Source: Patescibacteria group bacterium | GTDB taxonomy: Bacteria > Patescibacteriota > Doudnabacteria > UBA920 | NCBI GenBank assembly: GCA_013387205.1 | Contig: WARV01000008.1 | Location: forward strand, 136-64,135 | Length of the DNA: 64,000 nucleotides | Direction of reading: 5' to 3' | In this document: positions 2,815-43,765 of the stretch, piece after piece | Layout: each line of letters starts with the position of its first letter | How positions within the stretch are numbered: position 1 is the stretch's first letter | The notes under the pieces: generated by a model | What the model saw: the letters and a program-made list of their open reading frames with translations, nothing else | Told to the model about the DNA's origin: nothing | Database searches by the model: none | Position numbers and translations under genes: made by a program

Positions 2815-3035
2815 AAAATAAATTGACCTAATTGCTCTAAATTATTATTAACTCATCCTGTCCTTCTCTTTAGCAAAGAGAAGGAACCAGCTTAGCAAGG
2901 CTATAATCTTTCTTAGCATGTTCTCCCTCTTTATCATGGAGACAGAGGGAGTTAGTATTAGAAATTAGAAATTGGGAATTGTTTAGTCCGCCAGCTGGCG
3001 GAAATTAGGTCAATTAGGTTAATTAGAAATTCGCA
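2815..3035. repeat. composite intergenic palindromic element: family A termini (aattgacctaattgctctaa ... ttaggtcaattaggttaattagaaat) enclosing family B core and a CCGCCAGCTGGCGG palindrome
   Basis: Family A 5' module at 2821-2840 and 3' module at 3005-3030. B core 2851-2952 with hairpins tccttctctttAGCaaagagaagga and ctccctct..agagggag. Same composite found inverted at 30005-30177. Confidence 0.7.
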
Positions 3036-3039
3036 GCCT

Positions 3040-3918
3040 ATGAAAAATAATCAGCAGATAATAATTGTTCTAGTGTTTTCTATTCTTTTGGCATTATTTC
3101 TGTCATCAGTCTTTTCAGGTAGAGTAATCCTTCCTCAATATTTTAGTTTGGGCCCTGTTACAATCAGGTATTATGGGATAACAATAGTGGTCGCTATTTT
3201 AGCGGCTTATTATTTGGCGATGAAACGCAGAATGGTTTACGGAATTGAAAATAAGGATGCGGAAAATATAATTTTTTGGACAATTATCGGGGGATTTCTC
3301 GGCGCGCGGGTGTATCACGTGTTTTCCAGTTTTGGTTTTTATTTACATCATCCTTTGCAAATTCTACAGGTCTGGAAAGGCGGCCTTTCAATTTACGGCG
3401 CTTTAATCGGCGGCGTAACCTCGATAATTATTTGCCATGAAATCTTAAATCTTAAATCTAAAATCTTAAATCTTTTTGACTGGCTCGCGCCATCCCTTCT
3501 ACTCGGCCAGATTATCGGCAGATTCGGTAATATGTTTAATTACGAAGCGTTCGGTTATCCAACGAATTTGCCTTGGAAAATGTTCGTGCCAATAGGCTTC
3601 AGACCGGAAAATTTATCTCAAAGCAACTATTTTCATCCTCTCTTTTTATACGAAGCTCTTGGTAATGCCATAATTTTGTTTTTCTTATTGAGATACGAAA
3701 AAAAGATGGGCCAAAGCGGTTACTTAGGGGCAAGGCCGGGACGGCTTTTCTTTATATATCTTTTATTGTATAATATATTAAGGTTTTGCCTGGAATTTTT
3801 AAGAGTGGACAGCACTTTTATTGGCATGTTCAGGTTGAATTCCATCACAAGCTTTGTTTTAGTATTAATATCTTTAGGCTTTTTACTTTTTAACCGACGC
3901 GATGCAAAAATATCATAA
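3040..3918 (+). CDS. lgt: prolipoprotein diacylglyceryl transferase
   Basis: Polytopic membrane protein with Lgt signature GGFLGARVYH ... GGLSIYGALIGG ... GRFGNMFNYEAFGYPTNLPW. Contains an in-frame atcttaa heptad repeat (3441-3472, LNLKSKILNL). Confidence 0.85.
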   Translation: MKNNQQIIIVLVFSILLALFLSSVFSGRVILPQYFSLGPVTIRYYGITIVVAILAAYYLAMKRRMVYGIENKDAENIIFWTIIGGFLGARVYHVFSSFGFYLHHPLQILQVWKGGLSIYGALIGGVTSIIICHEILNLKSKILNLFDWLAPSLLLGQIIGRFGNMFNYEAFGYPTNLPWKMFVPIGFRPENLSQSNYFHPLFLYEALGNAIILFFLLRYEKKMGQSGYLGARPGRLFFIYLLLYNILRFCLEFLRVDSTFIGMFRLNSITSFVLVLISLGFLLFNRRDAKIS

Positions 3919-4660
3919 TGTAATATCATTGGTAATCGGGATAGCTTTTTTGGTGCTGTTGCGCGAATTTTCCAATCCTGACCCGATTTTCAGAATTTTA
4001 GTTCCGGTCTTTTTGGTTTATCTTATCTTAGTGCTGCTATATAATTATTGGTATTTAAAAACCATACAAAAGTATAATTTTTGGATGCTTATTAAGCTGC
4101 TGATGCTGCTGATTAGCGGGTTCGGGATTTTTTTGGTCATGCCGACGGTGGGCTTAAGAAGCCTTTTTTTAGTAGCCAGTGTTTTCGTCGTTGCCTTGTT
4201 TGAATATGCCATTGGCAATTATTCGGAAAACGTGCAGATAAACGAAACAATACTCACGGCTTTCGGTATGTTTGTCGCTATCTTAGGCGCGGCTCTTTAT
4301 ATTCCGCCGTTTTTCAAGCCCTATGTAAATTTGCTATACTTGTCAGGGATTTTCTTGTCTTCGACAATAATTTCCAGGACATTTTTTGAATTCATCCCCC
4401 AGCCGGGCAAGATAAAAACAGCAGCCTCCGTCACCATGGGCCTTTACACCACCGAAGTTTTTTGGGCTTTAAGTTTCCTGCCTTTCCATTATTCCGCCCT
4501 GGCCCTGCTTTTGTTCGTGGTGTTTTATTTGTGTTTAATGCTTAATTATTATTATTTTTTCCAGACACTAAGCTTTAAAAAATTCCAGTTCCATTTGATT
4601 TTGGCATTGGTTTGCGTAAGCCTGGTAATGGTTTCAACTCCCTGGAAGATTGCAGCTTAA
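3902..4660 (+). CDS. hypothetical polytopic membrane protein
   Basis: 252-aa ORF with about 8 hydrophobic helices, 17-nt overlap with lgt, no recognisable motif. Confidence 0.55.
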   Translation: MQKYHNVISLVIGIAFLVLLREFSNPDPIFRILVPVFLVYLILVLLYNYWYLKTIQKYNFWMLIKLLMLLISGFGIFLVMPTVGLRSLFLVASVFVVALFEYAIGNYSENVQINETILTAFGMFVAILGAALYIPPFFKPYVNLLYLSGIFLSSTIISRTFFEFIPQPGKIKTAASVTMGLYTTEVFWALSFLPFHYSALALLLFVVFYLCLMLNYYYFFQTLSFKKFQFHLILALVCVSLVMVSTPWKIAA

Positions 4661-10684: not shown

Positions 10685-11782
10685 TCAGGCGAAATACATC
10701 AATGCAATTACAATCAAAGAAATAATAAGTATTGTAATGTTGTTTATTTTGCGGTCGAAGTTCGCAAGTTTTTTTTGCAGGACTACTTTCGCGTCAGCCA
10801 AAAGGAAATAAAGCACGACAATCCCTAATCCCAAAACAAAATAACGGTTAAGGCTGTTTTTTCCCTGGGCTTCATCGATTAAATTTTGCGGTATAACGGC
10901 ATCAGCAGAGGTTTTAAACGTATTATTACTTTGAGTGGTATCGGCCGTTGAAGCTTTGGCGGTTGCAGTTGTAGTTGGGCTTTTGGCCTGTGTGGAATTT
11001 TGCTCCAGGCTGTCTCGCGGTTTTAAACTAGCTGAAGACGTAGAATTTTGGGTAGCTGCAGGCTTTGCATCGGCAATTTGCACAGGAGCGGGGGTGGGTG
11101 TGGAAATTGGCGCGGGTTTTGCCGCTGGAGTTGCTGGCTTTGGCGCAGGCTGTGGAGCTGGTTTTGGGGTCGGAGCAGGCGGCGGGGGAGTGGTTTTTTG
11201 CGCCTTAACAAGCAAAGCGCCAAAAGTATTTACAATAGCTGAATGGTATTGTTCCAAAGACGAATTGCCAAAGTCCAAACCCATTCCTTGGTCTTTAAAA
11301 CCTTCCTGCAAAATGTTGGCGCGGTGGGTCGGGCTGTTCATCCAGGCGGAAACCAAACTTTCTGTGCTTGAAAATTCAATGGCCAAATTTTCGCCGAGCT
11401 GCAAATACGGCGAATACCCCGCAGCTACAATTTTATCCCAAATATAATTTCCTTCAGGATCGATATGGCTAAAGTAGTGCCTGGCAATCATGTCGTCGGC
11501 CTTGCTTTGCGCGGCTGACGACAGTTTAAAATTCGTATTTAAGGCGGCTAAATTCCGCATGGTGCGCTCTTTGTTTATCGCGCTCAGAATATTTTCCGGA
11601 GTCAAATCTGAAGCGAAAGAATTCGGTACAGGCTTAAAAAGCAAAGAAATGGCGATTTTGAAAATCAAAAATAGCAGCAAAATAATTGCCAGGGATTCAA
11701 GCTTGAGTATTTTAGGAAAAGTGGCAGCCGGGGCTGTGACAGAAATGCCGGCTTCGTCGTTTAACGGGTTAATGTTCTCCAT
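10685..11782 (-). CDS. CAP/SCP/PR-1 domain protein with Pro/Ala/Thr-rich linker and C-terminal TM anchor
   Basis: HYFSHIDPEGN ... AWMNSPTHRANIL CAP motifs, (PAPKP)n linker, C-terminal hydrophobic segment. Confidence 0.8.
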   Translation of the reverse strand: MENINPLNDEAGISVTAPAATFPKILKLESLAIILLLFLIFKIAISLLFKPVPNSFASDLTPENILSAINKERTMRNLAALNTNFKLSSAAQSKADDMIARHYFSHIDPEGNYIWDKIVAAGYSPYLQLGENLAIEFSSTESLVSAWMNSPTHRANILQEGFKDQGMGLDFGNSSLEQYHSAIVNTFGALLVKAQKTTPPPPAPTPKPAPQPAPKPATPAAKPAPISTPTPAPVQIADAKPAATQNSTSSASLKPRDSLEQNSTQAKSPTTTATAKASTADTTQSNNTFKTSADAVIPQNLIDEAQGKNSLNRYFVLGLGIVVLYFLLADAKVVLQKKLANFDRKINNITILIISLIVIALMYFA

Positions 11783-11991: not shown

Positions 11992-13434
11992 ATGTCCGAC
12001 CACAGCCTCAAAAAAACTGAAAAAAAGTATCCGATTGCAACCGCGGAAATCGCGCAGATTTTTGGCTTGCCTGAATCTAGCATTGCGGAAGGCGCTTTGC
12101 CGGTTGTCAGCGATAAGGACAGTAGCGGACATGTTCCGGGATTTTCCAATGCTGCCGGCAATTTACCCGTAAAAGATTTGCCTGTTTTAGACAGCCATAC
12201 TCCTGAAAATATTCCACACGTTGCGGGTTTAAGCGAAGCCAGGCCCGTGCAAAAAGATTTAACTAAAAATATTGCTGCTTTAACAGGCTCTGGCAAAATT
12301 CCGCCGACCGGCCATATGAATGATGCAAATTTGTTAAACCAAAACCCCGGCGGTTCTAAGTTTGTAAAATTTTTGAAAAACATCGCTCCTTACGTTGCGG
12401 TTTTTTCCATCGGCATATTTTTGTATTTCTTTTTCTTCACCAAAACCGATTTTTCAAAAATCTTCAACATAAAACCGAAAGCGGAAACTCCGCAGCAAAG
12501 CGCCATTAAGCAGCTTGAAAGCAAGAGTATGGTTGGTTACCAGAACTGGATAAGCGGCTTTTACTTTGATGTTTCAGATCCGGAAGTGCTGAATCCTGAC
12601 GCTGATAATTCCGGCAATGGCTTGTCTAACTTCCAAAAATATCTTTTGAATTTAAACCCTAAATCTTACGATACTTTGGGACTTGGCATGGCTGACAGCG
12701 AAGCGCTGGCCCAGGGGATAAACCCGCTTACCGGCGGAAAGCTTAATGAGAACCAAAAAAATATCATCAGCAAATACTTTGACATGGAAGTCATTATGAA
12801 CAGGCTGGCTTTAAGCCAATTGCAAAAAAACGGCCAGGTTGCAGGGACAAATGTCGGCATCAACAACAGCATGGGCGCATACAGAAGTTTTGGCAGCCAA
12901 CCGGCACAGTCTGGCAATGTCAATGCCAATGTTGCCGCTAACGGAAACGTTGACCCGGTCATGCTAAGCGAATCTGACGTGAACACTTCCATTCCGGGCA
13001 GGTTGGAAATTCCTGACCTTGGAGTAAATGTGCCGATTATCTGGTCAAGCGACCCTAAAAACTTTGAGCAGGATTTAAAGAGCGGCGTGGTGCATTATCC
13101 TGGCACTGCCATGCCGGGGCAAATCGGCACTGCTTACATTTCCGGACACTCCAGCAACTACGCATGGGCAAAAGGAAATTACAATAAAGTATTTTCCAAA
13201 CTTGGCGATTTGGCAGATAACACTTCATTTAAAATCACTGTAGTAAACAAATCCGGCAAAGACGTGATATATCATTACGTGGTTGTCGGCAGGCAGCAGT
13301 ACGATGCCAAAGACCAGGCTCAATTCAGGAACGCGGGCCAGTCAGTCGTGGCTTTATCCACTTGCTGGCCAGTCGGTACTACTGCCAAGAGATTGGTCGT
13401 GTACGGACAAATGACACAGGTAGAAAATAAGTAA
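11992..13434 (+). CDS. sortase-family transpeptidase with long N-terminal region and TM anchor
   Basis: C-terminal domain shows the His (AYISGHSS), Cys (VALSTCWP) and Arg (TTAKRLVVYG) triad arrangement of sortases. TM at about residues 125-147. Confidence 0.7.
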   Translation: MSDHSLKKTEKKYPIATAEIAQIFGLPESSIAEGALPVVSDKDSSGHVPGFSNAAGNLPVKDLPVLDSHTPENIPHVAGLSEARPVQKDLTKNIAALTGSGKIPPTGHMNDANLLNQNPGGSKFVKFLKNIAPYVAVFSIGIFLYFFFFTKTDFSKIFNIKPKAETPQQSAIKQLESKSMVGYQNWISGFYFDVSDPEVLNPDADNSGNGLSNFQKYLLNLNPKSYDTLGLGMADSEALAQGINPLTGGKLNENQKNIISKYFDMEVIMNRLALSQLQKNGQVAGTNVGINNSMGAYRSFGSQPAQSGNVNANVAANGNVDPVMLSESDVNTSIPGRLEIPDLGVNVPIIWSSDPKNFEQDLKSGVVHYPGTAMPGQIGTAYISGHSSNYAWAKGNYNKVFSKLGDLADNTSFKITVVNKSGKDVIYHYVVVGRQQYDAKDQAQFRNAGQSVVALSTCWPVGTTAKRLVVYGQMTQVENK

Positions 13435-13440
13435 AATAGA

Positions 13441-13583
13441 ATTGACCTAATTAACCTAATTATTTCTAATTATTCTAAATAAATCCTAATGACTAAACCC
13501 CAAAATCTGGTCGTAATTGGGTATTGGGACTTAGACATTATTTAGGTCAATTAGAGTAATTAGAATAATTAGGTTAATTCTTT
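13441..13583. repeat. family A palindromic intergenic element
   Basis: aattgacctaattaacctaattatttctaatt ... ttaggtcaattagagtaattagaataattaggttaatt. Confidence 0.7.
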
Positions 13584-13717
13584 GCTGAGTAGATCGTATT
13601 CATTAGCTTATAACGAATACTATTCTACTCGGCTATTCGGCCGGTAGATGCCTCCGAAAGGCGGCAAAAAATACGGTCGAAAAGACGAGTGACGAATTCT
13701 AAGGAGGAATTCAAGTT

Positions 13718-15235
13718 ATGAAGAACGCTATGAACGCGATGTTTTTTGCGGTGATGGCTGCTATTCTCGCCGCAGGTACGGTTTTCGGACAGGAGACGCT
13801 GTTTCAGCTTCCTGTGGAGAAATCTTCAACCCAGCTTCTGCAGGAAATGCAGAAGCCGCGGGAAAAAACCATCACGGTTGCCGGCGTCAGGCTTTTCCAG
13901 CCTTTGCCGACTGAGAAATCGGTCGTCGACGACGAACATATGATCAGCGCCCTGCAAATGATCCTGACCGGCCCGAACGCCGACAGGTTTCGTGCAGATT
14001 ACGGGCAATTGCCAACTAGGCAGGAGCAAGAAGCGTTGGTTTTGTTGTACAAGCCAGACGCGGCAACAGCGACTGTCACCAGAAGGCTGTTTAAACCGGA
14101 CGAAGTTACCATTATCAACGACCCGGCATTAGTCCTTGAGCCAGGTGACTGGCGCGTGTTCCATCGCTGGAATGTTGACCCGATTTTGAATCGGGAAAAG
14201 CAGACCAGCGAGAACCGCATCACGCAGATATCTGACCTCAAGCGGTTTTTGCCGCTCATCAATTCCCGGATTGATCAAACAAGCTATCCGGCGGAAATTA
14301 AAGATGAGTGGAAGACTGTTCTCGAGAACTGCATTGACGGCTTAACTGGAGAATATGCCGGGTACTGCAAAGAAGTTGTGGTGTCCGAGTGGGCCCAGTA
14401 TTGGGAATTGATGCTCGGCGGCAGGTCTCACGCAGCCAAAGTGCATTACGTTCCTGACCCGGAATGGCGCGACGCCAAAGCAGTGGCCATGTTCTTGCCA
14501 AAAGCGGGAATGTGGGTAGCACAAGGCTTTGCATGCTGGGGAAATCCGTTTGTTCCGTACCAGTCGCATCGCTTTGATGTGACGAAGACGGAAGTGCAGC
14601 CAATCCCAGGATTCGGCTGTAAGATCTCCCAAGACAAGTCTGTCCTGTCCAGCAGGACAGATAGCGCAGCTTTCAAGCTTTCGGTATTCAGCGACAGTAC
14701 GCCGATTAAGATGGATTTTACAAGTCCATACTCTTCGGTAGATTGGTACCTGGATGCCAGGCTTATGACTCGAAATGTAATGAATGTTGAAGTGTTCGGG
14801 TCAGATCTCGGCGCTCCCGGCGGACCTTATCGGGTCCTCGCACGCGTGACCATTGGCAAGCAGCAAGTGGAATGTTACGGTGATTTGATGTATAAGGAAC
14901 TTCCACCTGTTGTTCCGCCTAAAGTTGTTATTCCGCCGCCAACTCCAATAGTACCGCCTCCAGTAGTTACGCCGCCGCCAAAGCCGGAATGTCCGGAATG
15001 CAAGCACAAGGTTTGGCCTTGGATTCTGGGAGCAGCGGTCGCTGGCGGAGCTGTATGCGGCATCACGTATGCAGCGCACGTCGCGCCATGCGGTCACGAA
15101 GAAAAAGTAACACCGACCAAAACACCAATAGGCCCCGGACAAATAATGGGATCGAGCGCAACAACAATCACGCCATCAGTATTTATCGATCCTAGGACAC
15201 GTACCAAAGCCTTCGGCTTTAAGGTTCGCTTCTAG
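13718..15235 (+). CDS. secreted/membrane-anchored hypothetical protein, compositionally foreign (high GC, strong SD)
   Basis: Signal peptide MKNAMNAMFFAVMAAILAAGTVFGQE, Pro-rich PPVVPPKVVIPPPTPIVPPPVVTPPPKPECPEC, then TM WPWILGAAVAGGAVCGI. aaggagga SD 8 nt upstream. Visibly GC-richer than its flanks, with many spurious antisense ORFs. Confidence 0.7.
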   Translation: MKNAMNAMFFAVMAAILAAGTVFGQETLFQLPVEKSSTQLLQEMQKPREKTITVAGVRLFQPLPTEKSVVDDEHMISALQMILTGPNADRFRADYGQLPTRQEQEALVLLYKPDAATATVTRRLFKPDEVTIINDPALVLEPGDWRVFHRWNVDPILNREKQTSENRITQISDLKRFLPLINSRIDQTSYPAEIKDEWKTVLENCIDGLTGEYAGYCKEVVVSEWAQYWELMLGGRSHAAKVHYVPDPEWRDAKAVAMFLPKAGMWVAQGFACWGNPFVPYQSHRFDVTKTEVQPIPGFGCKISQDKSVLSSRTDSAAFKLSVFSDSTPIKMDFTSPYSSVDWYLDARLMTRNVMNVEVFGSDLGAPGGPYRVLARVTIGKQQVECYGDLMYKELPPVVPPKVVIPPPTPIVPPPVVTPPPKPECPECKHKVWPWILGAAVAGGAVCGITYAAHVAPCGHEEKVTPTKTPIGPGQIMGSSATTITPSVFIDPRTRTKAFGFKVRF

Positions 15236-15413
15236 CGTTTAATCGGCGAAGGGGTGGGGGATTAGCCAAAAGCTATTCTCCCATCCCTCTCATACCTTTA
15301 AGGAAAAATTAAGATCTCTGGTTAAAATCCGTCAAAATCATCAGAATTAAGCGGAATTTAACGAGGGATGTTATAAATACGATAAAAATATAAAAAATCT
15401 AAATTTTTTTAGT

Positions 15414-15570
15414 GTCATTGCGAGCGATTTAAGGTCCGCCAGCTGGCGGATTGGCTTAAATTGCGTGGCAATCTAAGCAGGGAAAGATTACTTCCCCCTT
15501 CGCTAAAGCTACGTCGGACAAGTCGGATGCCCCAAAGGAGCCTCTTTGAGGCACTCCTCCTCGCAATGAC
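15414..15570. repeat. family C element (GTCATTGCGAG ... CTCGCAATGAC terminal inverted repeats) carrying a CCGCCAGCTGGCGG palindrome
   Basis: gtcattgcgag at 15414, ctcgcaatgac ending 15570, internal tcggatgccccaaaggagcctctttgaggcactcc module shared with 23296-23358. Confidence 0.7.
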
Positions 15571-15682
15571 AGGTAATTAATTGCATTTCACAAATCTCAA
15601 AAATCAGCTATAATAATATATCTTATTAATGCGAGAAATTATTAAATTAGCCTTGTTTTAAGGATTTTTTAGTAAATTAGCC

Positions 15683-15711
15683 TTGACAAAGAGGGGAAAA
15701 AGGCGTATAAT
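15683..15711 (+). promoter_or_regulatory. consensus sigma70 promoter TTGACA-17-TATAAT
   Basis: ttgacaaagaggggaaaaaggcgtataat, 24 nt upstream of the ATG at 15735. Confidence 0.6.
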
Positions 15712-15734
15712 AGTAGGTCATTAAAATATAATAT

Positions 15735-18700
15735 ATGAACCAAATGTTTTCAAAAATCTCTATAAAGACAGCTTTTCTGGCCGCTTTTGCAGTACTTGCT
15801 TTGTTAGCTTTGGCGCCAAGAAAGATTGATATAACCCAGGCCGAAAGCTGCTCAAACCCTCCGACTCATCCGGCATTTAATGTCTATCAAATAGATTTTT
15901 CCGGAAGCGGCTGTACTGATTACCCGACCATGATGGCCAGGGTTTTGCGTAATGGCCAGGAAATCCAAGGCTACCAGAGCGTGTATAATTCAGGCGCCAA
16001 TGCCCAAGCTGGCGATGAATTAGACGTTGTTGTTTACGTGCACAACGGCGCTGCGGAAAACTTAGACCCAGAACAAACTACCGCACGCGGAATTTATTTG
16101 AATACTACAGTCGACGGCACCTTTGAACCGGAACATACCATTAGCGTGACTGTCACTTCGCAGAACGCTGCTACCGTAAACGGCGCTTTTGGCATACATA
16201 CCGCTTCCAATGAAGCTTTGCAGGTTATCCCGAATAGCGGAGCCGTCTACGAACGCGGCAATCCAAACGCAATCCAGAGCGGATTGAACATCGGCGATAA
16301 TTCTTTTTCTTTGGGCGACATGCACGCCTGCTACCAATATTTGCGCTTCGTGCACTTTAGGGTTAAAGTCGTTGCCAAGCAAGTCCAGCCGACCGCAAAC
16401 ATTAGCGCCCAAGTCGGCTCGCAGGTCAACGGACAGTGCTTGCTTAACGGCAGCGTTACCTGGTCTTCGGAAAATGTCACTAACCCGCGCGTTTACGTAA
16501 AAGACGTGAATGATAATTTTGAACAATTGTTGGCTTCTGCTCCAAACGGCACTTCTGACACGCCTTGGCTTAAGCCGAACGATTCTTACATTTTTACTTT
16601 CAGGGGCGATAATATCCAGGACAAAACCGCCAATGTCACGACCGGCAATTTGAGCTGCGCTGTTCCGCCTGCCGGCAAAAACACTATCACTGCCCAAGCC
16701 GGCAACCAGATTGGCGCGCAGTGTTTGAGGGATGGTACTGTGAGCTGGACCAACGCTTCCAATGTCTCTATTGTGGAAGTTACTGTCCAGGATATTACCA
16801 CCAGTTCTCCGGTTAACAGCATAACCGGCCCTGCCGGCTTTCCCAACAGCAGCAGCGACACTCCTTGGCTGACCCCGGGCGATACTTTTCGCTATATTTT
16901 GTACGATACTACCAATGGCCAGCATACGGAACTGGCCAGGTATGATTTAAACGTGCCCACTTTAAACTGTGTCGTCACGCCTCCTGTCAGCTACACCCTG
17001 ACTACCAACAAGACTGATTATTGCGTGGGCGACATCCCGCAGTACACCATCACTTCTTCTCCAGCTTTGGCCGGCAAGAAAATCTTGTGGTCTTCTTTCT
17101 TCAACGGCCAGCCGACTGGCGAAATTAACACGGACTACGGTTTTTACCTGGACGCCAACGGCTTCTGGTCTGCTTATGGCAGCGGCTGGTACAGCAAAGA
17201 CATTGGTTCCTGGGTCAAGGAAGCCAACATTGACGGCGTGAAAAAGTCTGTCAGCTTTACCGTAAGGAACTGCGCGGCTCCGGTACCTACTTTAACCTGT
17301 ACTCCAGAAAACCAGACAACTGACATAGGCACAATCGTGTTCTTTACTGCTAATGGTGGAACTAGTCCTTATACCTTTACCGCTCCGGAAGGCGTAAATT
17401 CTTTCCCGAACGGAAGTAGTGGTTTCCATACCACGTATTTCAGCGCGGGCGACAAAGTTGTGACTGTTAAAAGCACTGATGGCCAGACAGCCATTTGTAA
17501 TGTGCATGTAAAAACCCCCCCGTCCCAGACTTTAGTTTGTTCTCCTTCTAGCCAGACTGTAAATGTAAACCAATCAGCCCTCTTTTCGGCAACCGGCGGC
17601 AAGGGAAGTTATACCTGGATAGCCAACGGCGGCAGCCCGGCGTCCGGAGCCGGCGGTTCTTTCTCTACGCAATACGCGTCCAGTGGCAGTAAGACCGTAA
17701 CTGTAGCCAGCAGCGACGGGCAGACGGCAAATTGTTACGTGCAGGTGAGCCCGCCGATTGAGCAGAATTTGGTTTGTACCACTTTAACTCCTTCTGTTGA
17801 TATTAACCAGACAGCCAATTTTTCCGCTACAGGCGGCAATGGCTCGTATTCCTGGTCTGCGGTTGAAGGATATCCTTCAAGCGGGGTTGGAAACAGCTTT
17901 TCTTCAAAATTCGCTACCAGCGGCAGCAAGACAGCTGTGGTAACAAGTGGCAGCAAAACCGCCACATGTTACGTGCAGGTTAGCCAGCCCGTAGTACAAA
18001 AAGGCGTATTGCAGATTTCCAAAGAAGTCAGGAATGTGACAAGCGGCGGGGATTTCAGCCATACAGCTTTCGCCAACCAGAATGACATAGTGGAATACCG
18101 CATTAAGGTATCGGCTGCGACTAATGTAGTGTTACAAAACGTTAAAGTAACCGATACTAGCAATTCCGGAATCGCTTACGTTGACGGAACTTTAACCCAG
18201 GACGGCGCAGTCCATGCTCCGGGGCTAACCTCTGGCGGCATTATTATCAGCCAGGTTGGGCAGACTCCGGTAGTGTTTACCTATAGGGCAAAAGTTTTAA
18301 TCAATAGCGGATCTGTCATAAACACGGCTTCGGCTTCTGCTGATAACGCCATTAACACTCCTTATGACCAGGCAGTTGTTACTGTTACTTTTATACAGCC
18401 CGGCCAGCCATCTATGACCATTACCAAGCAGGTGATGAATGTTACCAAAAATACCGGCTTTAGCTCTTCTGTTTCCGCAACCAAAGGCGATACTGTAAAA
18501 TACCAGATTGTTGTTTCTAACGTAGGAAACGCGGATGCTACTAATGTTTTCGTTAATGACAGCAACCCGATTGGCAACATAACAGGATTAACAGTATCAA
18601 GAAGCGGTTTTGGCGGAACGTTCGGCGCAAGCGGGATTTCTTTGGGCACTTTGGCCAAAGGAGAAAGCGTGACCATAACTTACAGCGGTACTGTGAATAT

Positions 18701-19853
18701 TGACAACGGGAATATCTTGAATGTTGCCACTGTTTCAGCCAGCAACGCGGCTTCGCAAAACGCCAGTGCGAATGTTTATGTCTCAACCAGCGTAATCCCA
18801 CCGATTATCCCTCCGAGCAATTATTACTACTACAATAACACCAGCAATAATTGCGTCAATAATTCCTGCAATACAACTACAACTACAACCAATACGTACA
18901 ACAATACCTATTATTACTACTCCAATCAAACCACTCCGGTTCCTTCCGCTGAATTTAGGCAATTAGGAATCAGGAAATTGGTCAGGAATATCAATGGCGG
19001 CACTTTCCAGGAAAGCATTACTGCCAATAACGGCGATATTGTGGAATACGAAGTTGTCGTGACCAACATTGGCAACCAGGTTGTGAATAATGTTAAGCTG
19101 ACTGACAGCAGCAACAACGGCGGTTTGTCTTGGACCAATTCCACTTATGTGGATGGCAGCCAGGCAACTTGGAATGGCAACGCTTTGTATTTGGGAAGCT
19201 TGTTCACTGGACAGCAAAAGCGCGTAGTTTATCAGGCCAGGGTGAATGGCGCTTCGGGCGCGAGCATCCAGAATATCGCAGTCGCTTCGGGAGACAATAC
19301 CAACTCTGTGCAGGATAGCGCTTGGGTATTCATTAGCGGCGTGGCCGGCAGTAATGTCAATTTGACTTACAGCAAGCGCGCGTTCAATGACACTAAGAAT
19401 GTCGATGCGACTACAATACCGGCTAATAGGGAAGAATATATCACTTACACTTTGACTGTTTTTAATAACGGTAACGCTCCTGCCAACAACTTTGTCATTT
19501 CCGATGATTTGTCCCAGGTCCTGCCTTACGCGGATTTGGCTGACAACGGCGGCGGTACGATTTCCGGAAACGTTATCAGCTTCCCGGGGATTACGGTTCC
19601 GCAGGGCGGCAGCGTGCAAAGGAGTTTCAAGGTCAGGATTAAATACCATTTGGCCGAGAACTTGAATTACGTGATGACCAACACTTACGGAAATACCGTA
19701 ACTATAAACATCAACACCCCGCAGGTTAAGGGAGCGTTCATTGCCCCAAGGACCGGCGCAGATACTATGGCTTTGGCCTTCGGCGGATTACTCACATCAG
19801 CCTTTGCGTTGATTAAAAAGAGAAAGTATTTAATGACTTTGATCTTTACCTAA
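15735..19853 (+). CDS. giant (1372 aa) secreted surface protein with DUF11-type repeats, N/T/Y-rich low-complexity segment and sorting-signal-like C-terminus
   Basis: Signal peptide. Repeated motifs such as EYRIKVSAATNVVLQNVKVTDTSN, KYQIVVSNVGNADATNVFVNDSN, EYEVVVTNIGNQVVNNVKLTDSSN (DUF11 / conserved repeat domain). C-terminus FIAPRTGADTMALAFGGLLTSAFALIKKRKY (motif + hydrophobic stretch + basic tail). Confidence 0.85.
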   Translation: MNQMFSKISIKTAFLAAFAVLALLALAPRKIDITQAESCSNPPTHPAFNVYQIDFSGSGCTDYPTMMARVLRNGQEIQGYQSVYNSGANAQAGDELDVVVYVHNGAAENLDPEQTTARGIYLNTTVDGTFEPEHTISVTVTSQNAATVNGAFGIHTASNEALQVIPNSGAVYERGNPNAIQSGLNIGDNSFSLGDMHACYQYLRFVHFRVKVVAKQVQPTANISAQVGSQVNGQCLLNGSVTWSSENVTNPRVYVKDVNDNFEQLLASAPNGTSDTPWLKPNDSYIFTFRGDNIQDKTANVTTGNLSCAVPPAGKNTITAQAGNQIGAQCLRDGTVSWTNASNVSIVEVTVQDITTSSPVNSITGPAGFPNSSSDTPWLTPGDTFRYILYDTTNGQHTELARYDLNVPTLNCVVTPPVSYTLTTNKTDYCVGDIPQYTITSSPALAGKKILWSSFFNGQPTGEINTDYGFYLDANGFWSAYGSGWYSKDIGSWVKEANIDGVKKSVSFTVRNCAAPVPTLTCTPENQTTDIGTIVFFTANGGTSPYTFTAPEGVNSFPNGSSGFHTTYFSAGDKVVTVKSTDGQTAICNVHVKTPPSQTLVCSPSSQTVNVNQSALFSATGGKGSYTWIANGGSPASGAGGSFSTQYASSGSKTVTVASSDGQTANCYVQVSPPIEQNLVCTTLTPSVDINQTANFSATGGNGSYSWSAVEGYPSSGVGNSFSSKFATSGSKTAVVTSGSKTATCYVQVSQPVVQKGVLQISKEVRNVTSGGDFSHTAFANQNDIVEYRIKVSAATNVVLQNVKVTDTSNSGIAYVDGTLTQDGAVHAPGLTSGGIIISQVGQTPVVFTYRAKVLINSGSVINTASASADNAINTPYDQAVVTVTFIQPGQPSMTITKQVMNVTKNTGFSSSVSATKGDTVKYQIVVSNVGNADATNVFVNDSNPIGNITGLTVSRSGFGGTFGASGISLGTLAKGESVTITYSGTVNIDNGNILNVATVSASNAASQNASANVYVSTSVIPPIIPPSNYYYYNNTSNNCVNNSCNTTTTTTNTYNNTYYYYSNQTTPVPSAEFRQLGIRKLVRNINGGTFQESITANNGDIVEYEVVVTNIGNQVVNNVKLTDSSNNGGLSWTNSTYVDGSQATWNGNALYLGSLFTGQQKRVVYQARVNGASGASIQNIAVASGDNTNSVQDSAWVFISGVAGSNVNLTYSKRAFNDTKNVDATTIPANREEYITYTLTVFNNGNAPANNFVISDDLSQVLPYADLADNGGGTISGNVISFPGITVPQGGSVQRSFKVRIKYHLAENLNYVMTNTYGNTVTININTPQVKGAFIAPRTGADTMALAFGGLLTSAFALIKKRKYLMTLIFT

Positions 19854-20237: not shown

Positions 20238-20741
20238 ATGTATACAAAAGAAACAAATTTTGCATTCGTAGATAGCCAGAATCTAAACCTGGGGATTAAA
20301 AGCTTGGGGTGGGATTTAGATTTTAAAAAATTCAGAATATATTTACAAGAAAAATATCATGTAAAAGTGGCGTATCTATTTATCGGCTACATGCAGCAAA
20401 ACCAAGACTTGTATGCCCAGCTACAAAAGTATGGTTACGTGTTAATATTCAAACCCACCCTGCCTGACAAGGACGGTAAAATTAAAGGGAATGTAGATGC
20501 TGATTTGGTTTTGCAAGCAATGATAGATTTAAAAAATTACGACCAGGCGTTAATAGTTACTAGTGACGGAGATTTCTATTCGTTAGTTAAATATTTATAT
20601 GAACAGGAAAAATTAAAATTAGTAATAAGCCCTTATGTAAAGACCTGTTCCTCCTTGCTTAAGAAGTCCGCTAAAGAAAAGATTGTATTTATGGATAATC
20701 TGAAGGGAAAACTGGAATATAAAGGAAAAAGCACCGCTTAA
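20238..20741 (+). CDS. NYN (LabA-like, PIN-fold) domain protein
   Basis: FAFVDSQNLN ... GNVDADLVLQAMID ... IVTSDGDFYSLV, the acidic motif pattern of NYN/LabA nucleases. Confidence 0.75.
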   Translation: MYTKETNFAFVDSQNLNLGIKSLGWDLDFKKFRIYLQEKYHVKVAYLFIGYMQQNQDLYAQLQKYGYVLIFKPTLPDKDGKIKGNVDADLVLQAMIDLKNYDQALIVTSDGDFYSLVKYLYEQEKLKLVISPYVKTCSSLLKKSAKEKIVFMDNLKGKLEYKGKSTA

Positions 20742-22467: not shown

Positions 22468-23070
22468 TCAGTTGCTATATAGCAGTTGATGGCCTCTCGC
22501 AATCGTTTGCAGGTTTTCGGCTTCGCGGCACGCGCCGCCAAAGTTGTGGTGGGTTTTCACCTCCTGGATGACTTTGGTCGCTTTCCGGTAAATACTGGCC
22601 ATCAAGCAGAACCTCGTTGCCATGTCGCAGAAAGTGAGAACGTTCCTTCCAAAGCAGCAGTTGGAATAAATATCATAAATCATCCAACTGTACTTGTCGT
22701 TTCCGCCGTACGTAACCTTGCCGTCGGAAATTTTAATCTCACAAGCACTGTTGGTGATTCCACTGCGCACAGTGATGGTCACTTGCGAAATCATTTCACT
22801 TATAGGCAAGATATCGATCTTGTCATTGACCAAAGGCCTGTTCCAGCTTGTTAGCTGATCGAACGTTCCATAAATCTGGGATGGGCTTATAACCATCTCA
22901 GTTTCCAACTCTCTGGTCGGCAGGAGTTTTTTACCTAGGATTATGCCCTTTTGCTGGTTTGGGACAATGCGGAAGCGCAACTCACGGAACTGATCGAGTG
23001 TTTCCTGGTAAAACCGTTCCTCGAATTTCGGAGGAATTATCGGGTGCGTCAAAAGGCTCAGGTTAACCAT
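22468..23070 (-). CDS. hypothetical Cys-rich protein, compositionally foreign (high GC, SD present)
   Basis: Likely start ATG at 23070 (aagaggaaaggcaatATG on minus). Track ORF extends to 23325. GC visibly higher than surroundings, with both strands open. No family assigned. Confidence 0.55.
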   Translation of the reverse strand: MVNLSLLTHPIIPPKFEERFYQETLDQFRELRFRIVPNQQKGIILGKKLLPTRELETEMVISPSQIYGTFDQLTSWNRPLVNDKIDILPISEMISQVTITVRSGITNSACEIKISDGKVTYGGNDKYSWMIYDIYSNCCFGRNVLTFCDMATRFCLMASIYRKATKVIQEVKTHHNFGGACREAENLQTIARGHQLLYSN

Positions 23071-23295
23071 ATTGCCTTTCCTCTTTCTTGTTTTGCCGCT
23101 GTTAAGCGGAACGACAGAAATTTTTAGGACCTGTCGCACATCCCGTTTGAGTAGCAATATAATACCATTTATGTCTTTGTTAATCAATCCTGTGTTACAA
23201 AACAGCAAATTTGTCGTTATATTATATATAATGCGAAATAGGATCAAGTTGTCATTACGAGGAGCCCGCAGGGCGACGTGGTAATCTTTGTACCA

Positions 23296-23491
23296 TGATA
23301 AGATTGCTTCGGTCGGATGCCCCAAAGGGGCCTCTTTGAGGCACTCCCTCGCAATGACATTGCTTGTTTGCTGTCATTGCGAACCCTGATATTTTATAGC
23401 TTTTAAATATCATGGTGAAGCAATCTGTTTAAGAGATTCTTCGCTACGCTCAGAATGACGCCTGAGGAGTAGTGGATTCGCTCGCAATGAC
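23296..23491. repeat. family C elements: one 3' half-copy (23296-23358) plus one full copy (23374-23491)
   Basis: ctcgcaatgac at 23348-23358 and 23481-23491, gtcattgcga at 23374. Internal gaagcaatctgtt..aagagattcttcg hairpin as in the 51322 copy. Confidence 0.7.
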
Positions 23492-23658: not shown

Positions 23659-24393
23659 ATGAAAAAATTATCCGTGGTTATTCCCGCCTATAACGAAGAG
23701 CAACGCATTGCCAAAACTTTGCTTGCCGTAGGCGAATATTTATCGAAACAAAATTACGATTACGAGATTTTGGTGGTTAATGATGGCTCAAAAGACAACA
23801 CCGCAGGAGTTGTCAGGGCGCAGATGGATAAAATAAAAAACCTGCATTTAATTGACCATCATGAAAATCATGGCAAAGGCTGGGTGACAAAAGACGGCAT
23901 GCTGCATGCAAACGGCGATGTACGCGTATTTTTGGATGCGGATAATTCCACCAAAATTGATGAAATTGGCAAAATGCTGCCATTTTTCGACCAGGGTTTT
24001 GATATTGTGGTCGGCTCCAGGCGCATAGAAGGTTCGCATTTAGATGTTAAGCAGAATTTTCTCAGGGATACTTTGGGCGGAATTTTCAGGCTGATTGTGC
24101 ATACCGTGGTACCAGTCGGCGTCACTGATACCCAATGCGGCTTTAAGGCTTTTTCCGCAAAATCAACCGAAGCCATTTTTCCCAAACAGACAATTTTCCG
24201 CTGGGCTTTTGACGTAGAGATTCTGGCTTTAGCCAGAAAGCAGGGTTTTAAAATAAAAGAAGCACCGGTTACTTGGGTTAACGACGGAGCCAGCCATGTT
24301 AAGCTCTCCGGAATGATTAAAATGCTTTTGGAAATAATACAGATCCGATTTAATTTGTGGTGCGGAAAATACAATAGTAATGACAAAAATTAA
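23659..24393 (+). CDS. GT2-family polyprenyl-phosphate glycosyltransferase (DPM-synthase/GtrB-like)
   Basis: KLSVVIPAYNEEQRIAKTL ... ILVVNDGSKDNT ... FLDADNS. Stop lies within a family D element. Confidence 0.85.
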   Translation: MKKLSVVIPAYNEEQRIAKTLLAVGEYLSKQNYDYEILVVNDGSKDNTAGVVRAQMDKIKNLHLIDHHENHGKGWVTKDGMLHANGDVRVFLDADNSTKIDEIGKMLPFFDQGFDIVVGSRRIEGSHLDVKQNFLRDTLGGIFRLIVHTVVPVGVTDTQCGFKAFSAKSTEAIFPKQTIFRWAFDVEILALARKQGFKIKEAPVTWVNDGASHVKLSGMIKMLLEIIQIRFNLWCGKYNSNDKN

Positions 24394-24470
24394 AAAAATG
24401 ACAAGATTGACATAAATAATCTGCAGTTAATATTTTGTCATTTCCGTCGTTTTTGTCATTTTTGTCAATA
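24380..24470. repeat. family D (TGACA-rich) palindromic element
   Basis: aatgacaaaaattaaaaaaatgacaagattgacataaataat ... ttttgtcatttccgtcgtttttgtcatttttgtcaat, near-identical to 36145-36233. Confidence 0.6.
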
Positions 24471-24478
24471 AAAATATA

Positions 24479-26344
24479 GTGGAAAAAGAAATAAGGAAAA
24501 AATCTAGACACAAATATCAGGCATTGCTGTCGATAGTATCGATTGGTTTTTTTGTCTTGTCTGTTTTTCCTTTAGCTGCATCGGCAAGTTCTCCGTCACC
24601 GAAAGATTATATAATCAAGTTGTCCTCAAATGCCAATCCAAAAGTGTTGGATTACGTGGCAGACAAAACACAGCGGCTTTTTGAGTTTTCGTATGATGAT
24701 AATTTTAAGAATATATACGCGCTAAAATCGCCTTTTGCCAAAAGCGAAATTGAAAAAGAATTAAATGGCCAGTTTGAATATCTGGAAGAAGAAAAGCCGT
24801 TGAACGTTGCGGATGTTTATGTCAACGATCCCGGATTTACATCCCGCGCAGAAGACACGGACAAGCAATGGGGACTTGCCAAAACCGGATTCAACCAGGT
24901 TTGGGAAAAAACAACGGGGTCGTATAACAACATTGTTGCGGTAATTGATACCGGCATAGACGAAACTCACGAAGATTTGCAGGCAATAAATTTTGTTGAA
25001 GGTTTTGATTTTGTCAGCCGCCAGAAAATAACCGGACGGGTCAATTCCGACAATAACGGGCATGGCACGCTGGTTGCCGGAGTTTTGGGCGCCACTGCCA
25101 ATAACGGGCTCGGCATAACCGGGACCAACTGGATGACAAGCTTGATGCCTCTTAAAGCTTTAGATGACCGCGGCAAGGGCGAATCGGCTTTGATTTCCGA
25201 AGCGATTGTCTGGGCAGTAGATAACGGCGCAAAATTCATAAATTTAAGCGTGGGCGGGGTCGGATTCGGGCACGATACGACATTGGCCAACGCAATTTCT
25301 TACGCGTTCGAAAAAGGCGCGGTAATCGTTTCCGCAGCCGGCAATGATACTTCGTCGCAAGGCATTAGCCTCGACGACGAGCCGGTTTACCCGATTTGCG
25401 ACGACAACAACCAGAATATGGTAATTGGCGTGACAGCTACTGACAGCAATGATTTAAAACCGGAATTCGCGAACTACGGGAAAAATTGCATAGACGTTGC
25501 CGCACCAGGAAAAAGGATCCTTTCTACCATCAATTACGACCCTTTAACCAAAAAGCCGGCGCCGAATTCATACGCATACGCTTCCGGAACTTCTTTGGCC
25601 GTGCCTTTCGTGGTCGGCCAGGCTGCTTTGATAAAATCTTTGCATCCGGAATTTACCAACGTGCAAATTCGGGACAAAATCCTCTCCACGGCCGACCCGA
25701 TAGATAATTTGAACATAAGCCAATGCAAGGGGGTGTCCTGTAAAGGAATGCTTGGCGCGGGCCGGATTAACGTCAAAAAAAGTTTGGAAAGCCAGACTGT
25801 GGCAATTGCGTTAAACGAGGGAGATTTAGTTAAAATGGATAGTAATAATGCCGTGTATCAGATTTCCGGCGGGCAAAAAAGGCTGGTATCGACTTTTGTC
25901 CTAAACCAGCAGTTTTCCAATGCCTATATTAAGCCTGTGACGCCAGACGCGCTGGCTAACATGCCGGATGGCCCTTATGTCACGCCAAAAGACGGCACGC
26001 TGGTGAAAATCGAGAATAACCCGACTGTTTTTTATATGTCCAAAGGACAAAAGCTTCCTATTACTTACAACGTATTCAAGCAAAGGCAGTTGAGTTTTTC
26101 GAATATTAACACGGTCAGCTTTTCAGAATTGAATTCATGGGTCACTGGATCTTTTTTGCCGCCTTCAGAAGGCACGCTGGTGAAAACTGCCAGGAATAAA
26201 ACAGTGTATTGGGTAGTGGGGGATGCGCTGCATGCGATTAATTATGCTTTTTACGTGCAAAAAGGTTTAAATATCTTTCCGGTATTGGTCTTGCCGGATA
26301 AAGACATAGCCGGATTTCCAAAAGGAGAAACGTATTTAAGATAA
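24479..26344 (+). CDS. subtilisin-like serine protease (S8) with N-terminal propeptide and C-terminal ~58-aa repeats
   Basis: Catalytic triad contexts VIDTGID, HGTLVAGV, GTSLAVP. C-terminal repeats (GTLVKIENNPTVFYMSKGQKLPI...) shared with the next gene. Confidence 0.9.
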   Translation: MEKEIRKKSRHKYQALLSIVSIGFFVLSVFPLAASASSPSPKDYIIKLSSNANPKVLDYVADKTQRLFEFSYDDNFKNIYALKSPFAKSEIEKELNGQFEYLEEEKPLNVADVYVNDPGFTSRAEDTDKQWGLAKTGFNQVWEKTTGSYNNIVAVIDTGIDETHEDLQAINFVEGFDFVSRQKITGRVNSDNNGHGTLVAGVLGATANNGLGITGTNWMTSLMPLKALDDRGKGESALISEAIVWAVDNGAKFINLSVGGVGFGHDTTLANAISYAFEKGAVIVSAAGNDTSSQGISLDDEPVYPICDDNNQNMVIGVTATDSNDLKPEFANYGKNCIDVAAPGKRILSTINYDPLTKKPAPNSYAYASGTSLAVPFVVGQAALIKSLHPEFTNVQIRDKILSTADPIDNLNISQCKGVSCKGMLGAGRINVKKSLESQTVAIALNEGDLVKMDSNNAVYQISGGQKRLVSTFVLNQQFSNAYIKPVTPDALANMPDGPYVTPKDGTLVKIENNPTVFYMSKGQKLPITYNVFKQRQLSFSNINTVSFSELNSWVTGSFLPPSEGTLVKTARNKTVYWVVGDALHAINYAFYVQKGLNIFPVLVLPDKDIAGFPKGETYLR

Positions 26345-26490
26345 ATTAACCTAATTATTCTAATTGCTCTAATTGACCCCGTGTCAGGCACGGGGCAGGC
26401 TCTAAATAAATCACAATACCCAAATCCAAAATTAAAAATTAGGTATTAGGATTTGATTAGACTAATTAGGTCAATTAGGTTAATTAGAAA
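26345..26490. repeat. family A palindromic element (contains ccccgtgtcaggcacgggg hairpin)
   Basis: aattaacctaattattctaattgctctaattgacc ... ttaggtcaattaggttaattagaaat. 3' module abuts the start codon of the next gene exactly as at 3005-3039. Confidence 0.7.
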
Positions 26491-26500
26491 TTTGCAGTCT

Positions 26501-31768: not shown

Positions 31769-31895
31769 ATTAACCTTCATACAGGCGTCATTCCGAGTGC
31801 AGCCGAGGAATCTCCTTTTGTAGTTTAAGAGATCCTTCGCTCGGATGCACTCGCTCAGGATGACGCCGGAGCGTCATTTTTGTCATTTATTTAAT
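31741..31895. repeat. family D element with a family C-like element nested inside
   Basis: aatgacaaaattgacggaaatgacataaatt ... [gtcattccgagtgcagccgagg...gctcaggatgacgccggagcgtca] ... tttttgtcatttatttaa. Confidence 0.55.
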
Positions 31896-31906
31896 TTTTT
31901 TAATTT

Positions 31907-36143: not shown

Positions 36144-36144
36144 A

Positions 36145-36233
36145 AATGACAAAAATTAAAAAAATGACAGAATTGACATAAATAATTGGCCCAATAATTT
36201 TGTCATTTACGTCGTTTTTGTCATTTTTGTCAA
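36145..36233. repeat. family D (TGACA-rich) palindromic element
   Basis: aaatgacaaaaattaaaaaaatgacagaattgacataaataat ... tttgtcatttacgtcgtttttgtcatttttgtcaat. Confidence 0.6.
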
Positions 36234-36289
36234 TGTGATTATTTTTGTGGTATTATTAAATTAATTATTATTATCTTCTTACTTTAATT

Positions 36290-37549: not shown

Positions 37550-37648
37550 ATTAACCTAATTATTCTAAACAAATCCCAATTCCTAATTTCTAAAATTAGA
37601 CATTATTTAGAATAATTAGAGCAATTAGAATAATTAGGAATAATTATA
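37550..37648. repeat. family A palindromic element
   Basis: aattaacctaattattctaaac ... ttagaataattagagcaattagaataattagg. Confidence 0.65.
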
Positions 37649-37650
37649 CC

Positions 37651-40726: not shown

Positions 40727-40748
40727 CTTTAAAGCTTAATCGTCTTGA

Positions 40749-40840
40749 TTGACAAAATTGTCATAATTTAAAAAATTGACACAAATATTACTGCAGTTTA
40801 TTTATGTCAATTTTGTCATTTTTTTATTTTTGTCATTTCA
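40749..40840. repeat. family D (TGACA-rich) palindromic element
   Basis: gacaaaattgtcataattt ... ttatgtcaattttgtcatttttttatttttgtcattt. Confidence 0.55.
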
Positions 40841-43042: not shown

Positions 43043-43045
43043 GTA

Positions 43046-43133
43046 ATATAATCCGAATTATCCGAATATAATCCAAATGACCCGAAATAGGACTCATTTG
43101 GGCATTCGGATGGTAATTCGGGGAATTAGGATT
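43046..43133. repeat. family E long imperfect inverted-repeat element
   Basis: taatccgaattatccgaatataatccaaatgacccgaa ... catttgggcattcggatggtaattcggggaattaggatta, ends 6 nt before the rpmJ ATG. Confidence 0.65.
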
Positions 43134-43139
43134 ATATCT

Positions 43140-43764: not shown

Positions 43765-43765
43765 C

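Follow-up and report, generated by a model that had tools for sequence, protein, structure and literature searches.

The stretch of DNA analysed here, called the window below, comprises 64,000 nucleotides (positions 136 to 64,135, forward strand, of contig WARV01000008.1) from the Patescibacteria group bacterium assembly GCA_013387205.1. The gene under study is an open reading frame (ORF) on the plus strand, which runs from an ATG at 13718 to a stop at 15235 and encodes a bitopic surface protein of 505 residues. The name X is used for this protein and for the family to which it belongs. X lies in a conserved locus of four surface genes, which encode a CAP protein, a sortase, X, and a giant isopeptide-type adhesin. 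The first of these genes, on the minus strand at 10685 to 11782, specifies a membrane protein with a CAP domain (cysteine-rich secretory protein family; Pfam PF00188, E=6e-16). The sortase gene (11992 to 13434, plus strand; Pfam PF04203, E=2.5e-20) is directly 5' of X; its product carries an N-terminal extension and a transmembrane (TM) segment, scores below every NCBIfam class cutoff, and is 47-57% identical to the sortases of related genomes. The fourth gene (15735 to 19853, plus strand) encodes a surface protein of 1372 residues with CLIPPER/DUF11 repeats (Pfam DUF7507 and DUF11; NCBIfam TIGR01451). Pfam PF01345 is named CLIPPER in precomputed matches, and in passages of one source CLIPPER, DUF11, and intramolecular isopeptide bonds are apparently treated together (PMC12617251). 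The giant protein ends in a sorting signal, IAPRTG followed by a TM segment and KKRK, and is presumed to be a substrate of the sortase. The wider neighbourhood is one of cell-envelope biogenesis, with genes for Lgt, an HtrA-like protease, RmlABCD-like enzymes of the dTDP-rhamnose pathway, a GT2 protein, and a subtilase.

With the upstream sortase as probe, six related loci (L001 to L006) were obtained from metagenome-assembled genomes (MAGs) titled 'uncultured Candidatus Saccharibacteria bacterium'. Synteny by tblastn reveals that the gene order is kept in all six: rhamnose-pathway genes, the CAP gene on the minus strand, the sortase, X where it is present, the giant CLIPPER/DUF11 gene, and an epimerase. 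The CAP gene is likewise syntenic in L014, L015, and L016. An X homologue fills the slot in four of the six loci (L001, L002, L003, and L005), that of L003 being recognisable by profile comparison only (hhalign 97.8%, E=7.5e-13). Gene tables place X directly after the sortase in L007, L014, L019, and two contigs for which no DNA was available, and place the giant gene directly after X in L012 and L014; a metagenome scan added L016 and L017, which have the same order. Altogether, X is found directly 3' of a sortase in at least 11 distinct contigs. A first-pass annotation of the window, made from the sequence alone, had proposed a search for related genomes that are empty at this position, and two were found: in L004 and L006 the sortase leads straight to the giant gene, with 220-380 nt between them.

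The downstream flank of the X slot is conserved as well and is marked by the promoter of the giant gene, a perfect σ70-type sequence (TTGACA-17-TATAAT, 12 of 12 matching positions) at 15683 to 15711 on the plus strand, which is also found 5' of the giant gene in L004, L005, and L006. A tandem 17-nt direct repeat, TTA(T/G)TAAATTAGCCTTG, at 15639-15655 and 15669-15685, abuts the -35 box of this promoter and may be an operator.

The content of the slot differs sharply even between relatives. The sortases of L002 and L003 are 79% identical, whereas their X proteins, both of them family members, are ~17% identical and have no similarity by BLASTP (E=0.46). The DNA of these two loci is ~70% identical through the sortase and 90.7% identical over the 86 nt at the end of the X leader, and this similarity reaches 9-12 nt into the coding sequence. 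There it ends abruptly, to return upstream of the giant gene, 220-380 nt past the stop codon of X. Thus, as in a switched cassette, unrelated alleles lie between flanks whose DNA is 70-91% identical. Boundaries as sharp as these are not expected from divergence in place and therefore argue for the replacement of one allele by another through recombination. L005 and L006, whose sortases are 75% identical, differ in that X is present in the former and absent from the latter. Over eight loci, the pairwise identities of X and of the sortase are uncorrelated (Spearman -0.02), and the neighbour-joining trees of the two proteins differ. The patchy distribution and the incongruence typical of genomic islands are therefore both seen here, in the empty sites of L004 and L006, in the missing correlation, and in the replacement between L002 and L003. 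These comparisons of sequence indicate that the slot probably turns over by allele replacement and by loss, with recombination in the conserved flanks.

The first-pass annotation had described X as a secreted protein with a signal peptide, a Pro-rich tether, a C-terminal TM segment, and pairs of cysteines, and all of these are found. The N-terminus is hydrophobic from residue 4 to 26 (...VFG/QE), and hydropathy places a signal peptide at residues 1 to ~24. The ectodomain (residues 46 to 394) consists, in an AlphaFold2 model, of an N-terminal α/β region and two β-sandwich domains. There follow a Pro-rich stalk (394-424), the sequence CPEC (425-428), the TM segment (432-455), and a tail (456-505); further cysteines, C447 and C458, are near the TM segment. 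An exhaustive HMMER phmmer search of 1.84 billion cluster representatives returned 17 matches including X itself, that is, 16 remote relatives of 20-34% identity, and five matches, including the query, have E<=1e-10. One architecture is common to all 16: a signal peptide, a variable N-terminal segment, a conserved core with a C-x-G-N motif and cysteines, at least one β-rich module, a Pro-rich linker, a basic or Cys-containing juxtamembrane segment, a Gly/Ala-rich TM helix, and a Pro/Gly-rich tail. In the family alignment, C273 and N276 of the C-x-G-N motif (GFACWGNPF in the window) and C386 are invariant, and C301 is nearly so.

Other searches returned little. Word-indexed searches of 5.8 billion proteins with the X protein and with 5-sequence and 16-sequence core alignments found only the query itself, and an exact-sequence contig look-up with the window's X protein gave no match. 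X has no match in Pfam, NCBIfam, or PHROGs, the family profile matches no sequence of the Protein Data Bank (PDB), ten relatives have no Pfam domain, and neither X nor its relatives match a viral family in PHROGs. In the literature, no description of the X family or of its locus in Saccharibacteria was found. On the evidence of these searches, X appears to be an undescribed, rare, and clade-restricted family of bitopic cell-surface proteins.

Modelled as a single sequence, X gave an uninformative AlphaFold2 structure (pLDDT 35); with the 16-sequence alignment, residues 46 to 394 reached a pLDDT of 89 and a pTM of 0.72. Foldseek aligned this model over ~100-250 columns each with SYG-2 D3-D4 (E=1.5e-5), with immunoglobulin (Ig) domains of Dscam1, and with FN3 modules of CbhA in the PDB; SYG-2 D4 alone gave a TMt of 0.70 and an rmsd of 2.8. 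The model thus has the β-sandwich fold of Ig/FN3-like domains, and the Foldseek matches are solely to generic domains of this type. No structural match to the N-terminal α/β region was obtained. The Ig-like domains are predicted to contain disulfides. Homology between these domains and the repeats of the giant protein was considered and rejected, the hhalign probability being 0.2%.

X does not have the C-terminus of an LPXTG-type sortase substrate. The sequence before its TM segment (...PPPKPECPECKHKVWPWILG...) contains no LPXTG- or APxTG-type motif, the juxtamembrane segments of the homologues are basic and Gly-containing or contain C-G-x-C-W, again with no sorting motif, and in place of a short K/R tail there is a Pro/Gly-rich tail of 50 residues (20-50 residues in the relatives). 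The cytoplasmic tail carries a conserved pattern, e.g. PG[VL][IV]K.P, which suggests, speculatively, that X might have an intracellular partner.

In composition the X gene stands apart from the rest of the window. Its GC content of 0.524 is the highest among the window's 47 ORFs (the others, 0.423±0.031; z=+3.3), and the elevation is present at all three codon positions (0.563, 0.443, and 0.567), the last (GC3) comparing with 0.467±0.046 in the other ORFs (z=+2.2). At a resolution of 120 nt, the GC island extends from ~13600 to 15280 and has AT-rich spacers on both sides. The giant ORF is also GC-elevated (0.484 overall, 0.51-0.52 in 500-nt windows) and is the second-GC-richest of the window. 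Thus, the earlier statement that X is GC-richer than its surroundings is correct, though only by a modest margin on the side of the giant gene, and so is the statement that X contains many antisense ORFs, of which there are seven, 63-113 residues long. That annotation had also named GC and codon usage as the test of its reading. GC proved to be at the local extreme; synonymous codon usage is only moderately deviant, X being fifth among 47 genes (z=3.0), and deviates in the direction of the window's ribosomal-protein genes. The two sets of deviations are correlated (r=0.40, p=0.0016), with TAC, CAC, GAC, ATC, and AAG shifted in the same way, and the GC3 of X is above the 0.44-0.53 of the ribosomal-protein genes. 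At the protein level, X is enriched in Pro (9.3% versus 4.0%), Val, Ala, and Arg and depleted in Lys (5.9 versus 8.2), Asn (2.4 versus 5.7), Ile, and Leu.

The 5' leader of X (13584 to 13717, plus strand; RNAfold -50.6 kcal/mol) consists of a hairpin at 13584-13633, a GC-rich hairpin at 13636-13681, and a Shine-Dalgarno (SD) sequence, TAAGGAGGA, at 13700-13708, which is 10 nt upstream of the ATG and located in the loop of a GAATTC/GAATTC stem. Against a generic anti-SD, which served for all such energies here, it forms a duplex of -11.1 kcal/mol; no other of the 48 genes does as well (mean -1.9, sd 3.3), which bears out the earlier remark that X has a strong SD in a region where most genes have none. 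Just four of the 48 reach -8 kcal/mol or below, and two of these are judged spurious: the match at 46626 falls within a repeat element, and 22468 is a doubtful ORF. SD sites are otherwise almost absent from the window, and seven genes of translation and transcription (S13, S11, S4, RpoA, L17, L13, and S9) are without one. On the 3' side, a terminator-like GC-rich hairpin with a weak U tract (15250 to 15288, plus strand; RNAfold -29.1 kcal/mol), which a simple terminator scan did not pick up, is located 15 nt past the X stop.

The same signals accompany the homologues, each of which has a hairpin-rich leader and an SD. Every X start that could be checked is preceded at the right spacing by GGAGG or AGGAG, with energies of -9.3 to -11.6 kcal/mol (in L002 and L005, at an internal ATG in agreement with the N-terminus of the family); the sortase and CAP genes next to X, at +2.8 to -3.8 kcal/mol, have no SD. 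Most homologues also have a GC-rich hairpin, mostly with a T run, 20-40 nt past the stop. Leader, SD, coding sequence, and terminator-like hairpin together make X a discrete GC-rich unit. The SD, the terminator-like hairpin, and the ribosomal-protein-like codon shifts are indirect hints that X may be highly expressed. Short motifs recur in the X leaders (GCTGAGTA..., TACCCGG, and CAAAAAT). The search for an RNA element in the leader, whether already known or newly shown, gave no support for one: no Rfam family matches the X leader or flanks, and RNAalifold on 10 leaders gave no consensus structure (3 pairs, -0.5 kcal/mol). The X leaders of L002 (10535-10617) and L003 (9424-9507) contain nested GC palindromes, GGCCGGCAGTAATGCCGGCC and GGCCGAACAGGCC, which could be strongly constrained RNA or a recombination junction. 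Near X, the related contigs L008 and L012 have several genes with an SD and a high GC content.

In every one of the 10 loci for which DNA and neighbours were at hand, X is above the average GC of the remaining ORFs (Wilcoxon p=0.002), and it ranks first in seven and second in three. Its GC lies between 0.521 and 0.566 (sd 0.016) while that of the local host DNA ranges from 0.388 to 0.527 (sd 0.043), and the correlation between the two is weak and non-significant (r=0.57, p=0.08; GC3 r=0.31). L005 is the extreme case, with 0.541 for X (GC3 0.598) and 0.388±0.019 (0.377) for the other ORFs. In L007, X has 0.564 (0.650) and the adjacent sortase 0.407 (0.354); in L019, the values are 0.513 (0.571) and 0.431 (0.412). 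The GC3 excess of X in L005 and L007 amounts to +0.22 to +0.29. In L008 and L012, where the hosts have ~0.50 GC and the neighbours use SDs, X is close to background. The deviant composition of a genomic island is thus present in the window and, against local backgrounds, in 10 of 10 loci. Being GC-rich and having an SD are traits of the X family, not marks of recent foreign import here. Candidate causes of the GC-richness are allele circulation, GC-biased gene conversion (gBGC), and translational selection together with amino-acid composition.

The last of these causes belongs to an explanation in which X is a purely vertical, very fast-evolving, highly expressed surface gene. GC1 and GC2 would then follow from the amino acids and GC3 from translational selection, and SD and terminator would be parts of a high-expression design, with no need for horizontal exchange. 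The Pro, Lys, and Asn contents, the modest rank of the synonymous deviation and its ribosomal-protein direction, the conserved slot, and the X identities of one subgroup of loci (subgroup B, discussed below), which are roughly in step with those of the sortase, all fit such a history. However, the GC3 of X exceeds that of the ribosomal-protein genes, which also lack SDs, and L005 and L007 have a GC3 excess that is very large for an effect of translational selection. Divergence in place also has difficulty with L002 and L003, where a sortase identity of 79% and a leader identity of 91% stand beside X proteins of no detectable similarity with sharp boundaries, and with the empty site of L006 beside its 75%-identical relative L005. 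We therefore regard descent of this kind as unlikely.

A second explanation, which we consider rather unlikely, is that X alleles circulate in the clade faster than they ameliorate. They would come from an SD-using donor pool of GC ~0.5 and would travel as a gene-sized cassette that integrates through homology in the flanks. The near constancy of X GC while host GC varies, their weak, non-significant correlation, and the closeness of X to background in the ~0.50 GC, SD-using surroundings of L008 and L012 would all be expected, and both replacement and loss are observed, as is one copy outside the sortase locus, after ftsA. Set against this, no near-identical shared alleles were seen, the nearest relative of any allele being at most 49% identical; in this sparse sampling, the closest pair between loci (L016 and P0007) is 49% identical. 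No recombinase or att-like site was found either, and the alleles of subgroup B are mutual nearest relatives that are all in AT-richer hosts.

gBGC, which reportedly exists in bacteria, offers a third explanation: acting at a recombination hot spot under diversifying selection, it would raise the GC of X and also mildly lift the giant gene. It would account for the elevation at all three codon positions in a gene flanked by recombination breakpoints, and for a giant gene that is second-GC-richest in the window and elevated also in L003, L006, and L014. It leaves the SD unexplained, the GC3 of the giant gene in L006 is not elevated (0.341 versus 0.332), and neither is the flanking sortase in L005, L007, and L019. 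For these reasons gBGC seems to us a rather improbable cause.

The first-pass annotation had read X as horizontally acquired cargo bracketed by miniature inverted-repeat transposable elements (MITEs), and repeat elements are indeed present on both sides. Just past the sortase stop is an imperfect palindrome of family A (13438 to 13582, no strand assigned), made of ~9-nt AATTAGGTT-like words with inverted repeats I1-I9; it has relatives in three other spacers (2817-3046, 26330-26507, and 37545-37657), and Rfam returned only a chance hairpin match to a plant miRNA family. Between X and the giant-gene promoter is a MITE-like element of family C (15414 to 15570, no strand assigned) with 11-nt terminal inverted repeats, GTCATTGCGAG/CTCGCAATGAC. 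The GTCATTGCGAG 11-mer has nine matches in the window versus 0.75 expected, and four copies are bounded. The two elements that flank X are unrelated in sequence, no direct repeats of 11 nt or more, as a target-site duplication would leave, exist around 13400-15750, and both families also sit in other spacers beside ordinary genes. In the nine other X-bearing loci among the first 14, GTCATTGCGAG has no match in the corresponding spacer, the sole match being elsewhere in L001, so X and the elements do not occur together in related genomes. Judged from these sequence comparisons, elements A and C are bystanders and the MITE bracketing is coincidental.

The import itself fares no better. Among the 1.84 billion representatives no X homologue was found outside this clade's kind of organism, and the 16 relatives, which sit in this type of locus wherever their context is known, point to no donor lineage. 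At least 11 contigs have a homologue in this very slot, and other kinds of organism yielded none, which argues that X is not foreign cargo dropped into this genome. The highest GC of the window, the unique SD, the repeat elements on both sides, and the empty sites in L004 and L006 had all seemed to favour a recent cargo gene mobilised by two flanking MITE-like elements. With slot-mates in so many contigs, X-bearing relatives that lack the elements there, two scattered element families with no target-site duplication, and no out-of-clade homologue, nearby mobility gene, or PHROG match, this explanation is largely refuted and, in our view, very improbable. What stands of the original claim is a deviant, secreted protein with a turnover of horizontal type; the foreign origin and the MITE bracketing do not. 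Integron-cassette and transposon models were likewise rejected, there being no integrase or transposase among the Pfam-scanned ORFs within ±10 kb and no flanking direct repeats, as was a diversity-generating retroelement, since no part of X is repeated anywhere in the 64-kb window and no reverse transcriptase was found among the neighbours scanned.

The repeats of the window have features of their own. Its long imperfect palindromes, with ~9-nt words as their units, fall into no fewer than three families (AATTAGGTT-like, AATGACAAA/ATTGACATA-like, and ATCCGAAT/ATTCGGAT-like). A second group of coordinates is 24373-24472, 31741-31921, 36138-36252, 40745-40831, and 45998-46063, and a third is 43013-43137, 43762-43874, 46493-46622, and 50635-50735. 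These palindromes fill whole spacers between co-directional genes, ribosomal-protein genes included, and some extend as far as the start codon that follows, e.g. 3003-3046 and 26464-26507, whose 95% identity spans an ATG. Family C elements are internally very variable. One copy (51322-51432) is inside a 413-residue ORF at 50708-51949, and two tandem copies (23251-23358 and 23373-23491) overlap the doubtful minus-strand ORF 22468-23325.

The reading that we favour, and consider probable though well short of certain, is that X occupies a resident variable slot between the sortase and the giant adhesin, as a surface-protein cassette that is hypervariable and is equipped with expression signals of its own. 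Alleles would be replaced by homologous recombination; in L002 and L003, the 5' crossover would have taken place at the leader and start codon and the 3' crossover upstream of the giant-gene promoter. X itself could be abundant and strain-specific, as a surface receptor, an adhesin, or a component of a coat, and it might work beside the sortase-anchored adhesin at the surface of contact with a host cell or with phages, and its turnover could be driven by diversifying selection.

Several points weigh against this reading of X as a resident variable slot. The function proposed for X is inferred wholly from its architecture and context, and the Saccharibacteria-like label of the organism from the titles of related MAG records. 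All composition backgrounds are local (10-64 kb) rather than whole genomes. A search for a promoter upstream of X found none. The X homologue of L008 (P0004) is not beside a sortase; it lies between ftsA and a weak FtsZ-like gene. No near-identical X alleles were seen in divergent genomes, so that transfer is deduced from replacement and incongruence. The best relative of the window's X is 34% identical, too remote to date the arrival of X or to reveal how it took place, and the best sortase in the metagenome scan is 55% identical to that of the window, too distant for the age of the allele to be assessed. Finally, in subgroup B (L002, L005, and L007) the X identities of 35-41% are only moderately lower than those of the sortases (52-54%), as a partly vertical descent would allow.

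A bolder version of the variable-slot reading would make X a 'surface identity cassette', the size of one gene, that passes from one episymbiont lineage to another with its own SD and terminator, its host-independent GC resulting from a fast change of hosts. Recombination may, on the sequence comparisons, take place at the conserved leader and at the conserved downstream promoter flank. We think this version unlikely; if it were true, X could set the host or phage specificity of ultrasmall bacteria. In passages of one source (PMC11623550), host recognition and attachment by Saccharibacteria-like episymbionts are described as largely unknown beyond type IV pili. X is the only component of the locus that lacks an annotation, and a protein that is hypervariable, replaceable, and compositionally distinct in every genome has the profile expected of a specificity determinant or of a target of phage or of host defence. 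X also provides a natural case of a single gene whose GC, across deep divergence, stays ~10-15 points higher than that of AT-rich genomes, and a warning that GC-richness, an SD, and flanking repeats are not by themselves proof of recent foreign cargo.

Other parts of the locus and of its relatives deserve mention. Between the giant gene and the epimerase, the window has a NYN-domain gene (20238-20741) of the lowest GC in the window (0.335); at this position L012 has instead two small GC-rich, SD-led genes of unknown function, so that the position looks like a second variable spot in the locus. In L007, a GC-rich (0.569), SD-led gene with collagen triple-helix repeats (3622-4338) follows X where the giant adhesin would be expected. 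In L008 (1-6223), P0004, an unannotated gene of 395 residues, and a weak tubulin/FtsZ gene of 580 residues are found in the usual ftsA-ftsZ adjacency. A gathering-level scan with Rfam found no RNA gene near the X locus; its only match in the window is a bacterial RNase P class A RNA at 48790-49115 on the minus strand (108 bits).

X shares traits with several known systems of surface variation. The S-layer cassette of C. difficile (slpA-secA2-cwp66) is reportedly switched between lineages by homologous recombination. As in that cassette, divergent alleles of a surface protein occupy one chromosomal position between conserved flanks (L002 and L003). Unlike the proteins of the C. difficile cassette, however, X has Ig domains and a TM anchor and lacks CWB2 and SLH domains, no identical X cassette has been seen across lineages, and the X gene surpasses its genome in GC and is unique in being SD-led. 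The locus also recalls the sortase adhesin and pilus loci of Gram-positive bacteria, in that a sortase gene is accompanied by one for a giant repeat protein whose signal is LPXTG-like (IAPRTG, TM, and KKRK), with X encoded between the two. X departs from these loci since it has no sorting motif and keeps its TM anchor and a tail of 20-50 residues, and we know of no accessory protein of this architecture in them.

The S-layer glycoproteins of haloarchaea (csg type) have a C-terminal membrane anchor, and X resembles archaeal proteins of this kind in its signal peptide, its β-rich ectodomain, its extended stalk (Pro-rich in X), and its single C-terminal TM segment. It differs from them in being bacterial, in having no PGF-CTERM/archaeosortase signal, and in that the relation of its Ig-like fold is only generic. 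O-antigen and capsule loci are flexible genomic islands for surface structures. X has in common with these islands a deviant composition, a conserved site between envelope genes, allele replacement, and a polymorphism of presence and absence; unlike them, it is a single gene whose GC deviates upward and whose family is confined to one slot in one clade. Thus, without belonging to any of those protein families, X would by analogy most resemble, in its behaviour, the recombinationally switched surface-protein cassettes and the flexible surface islands.

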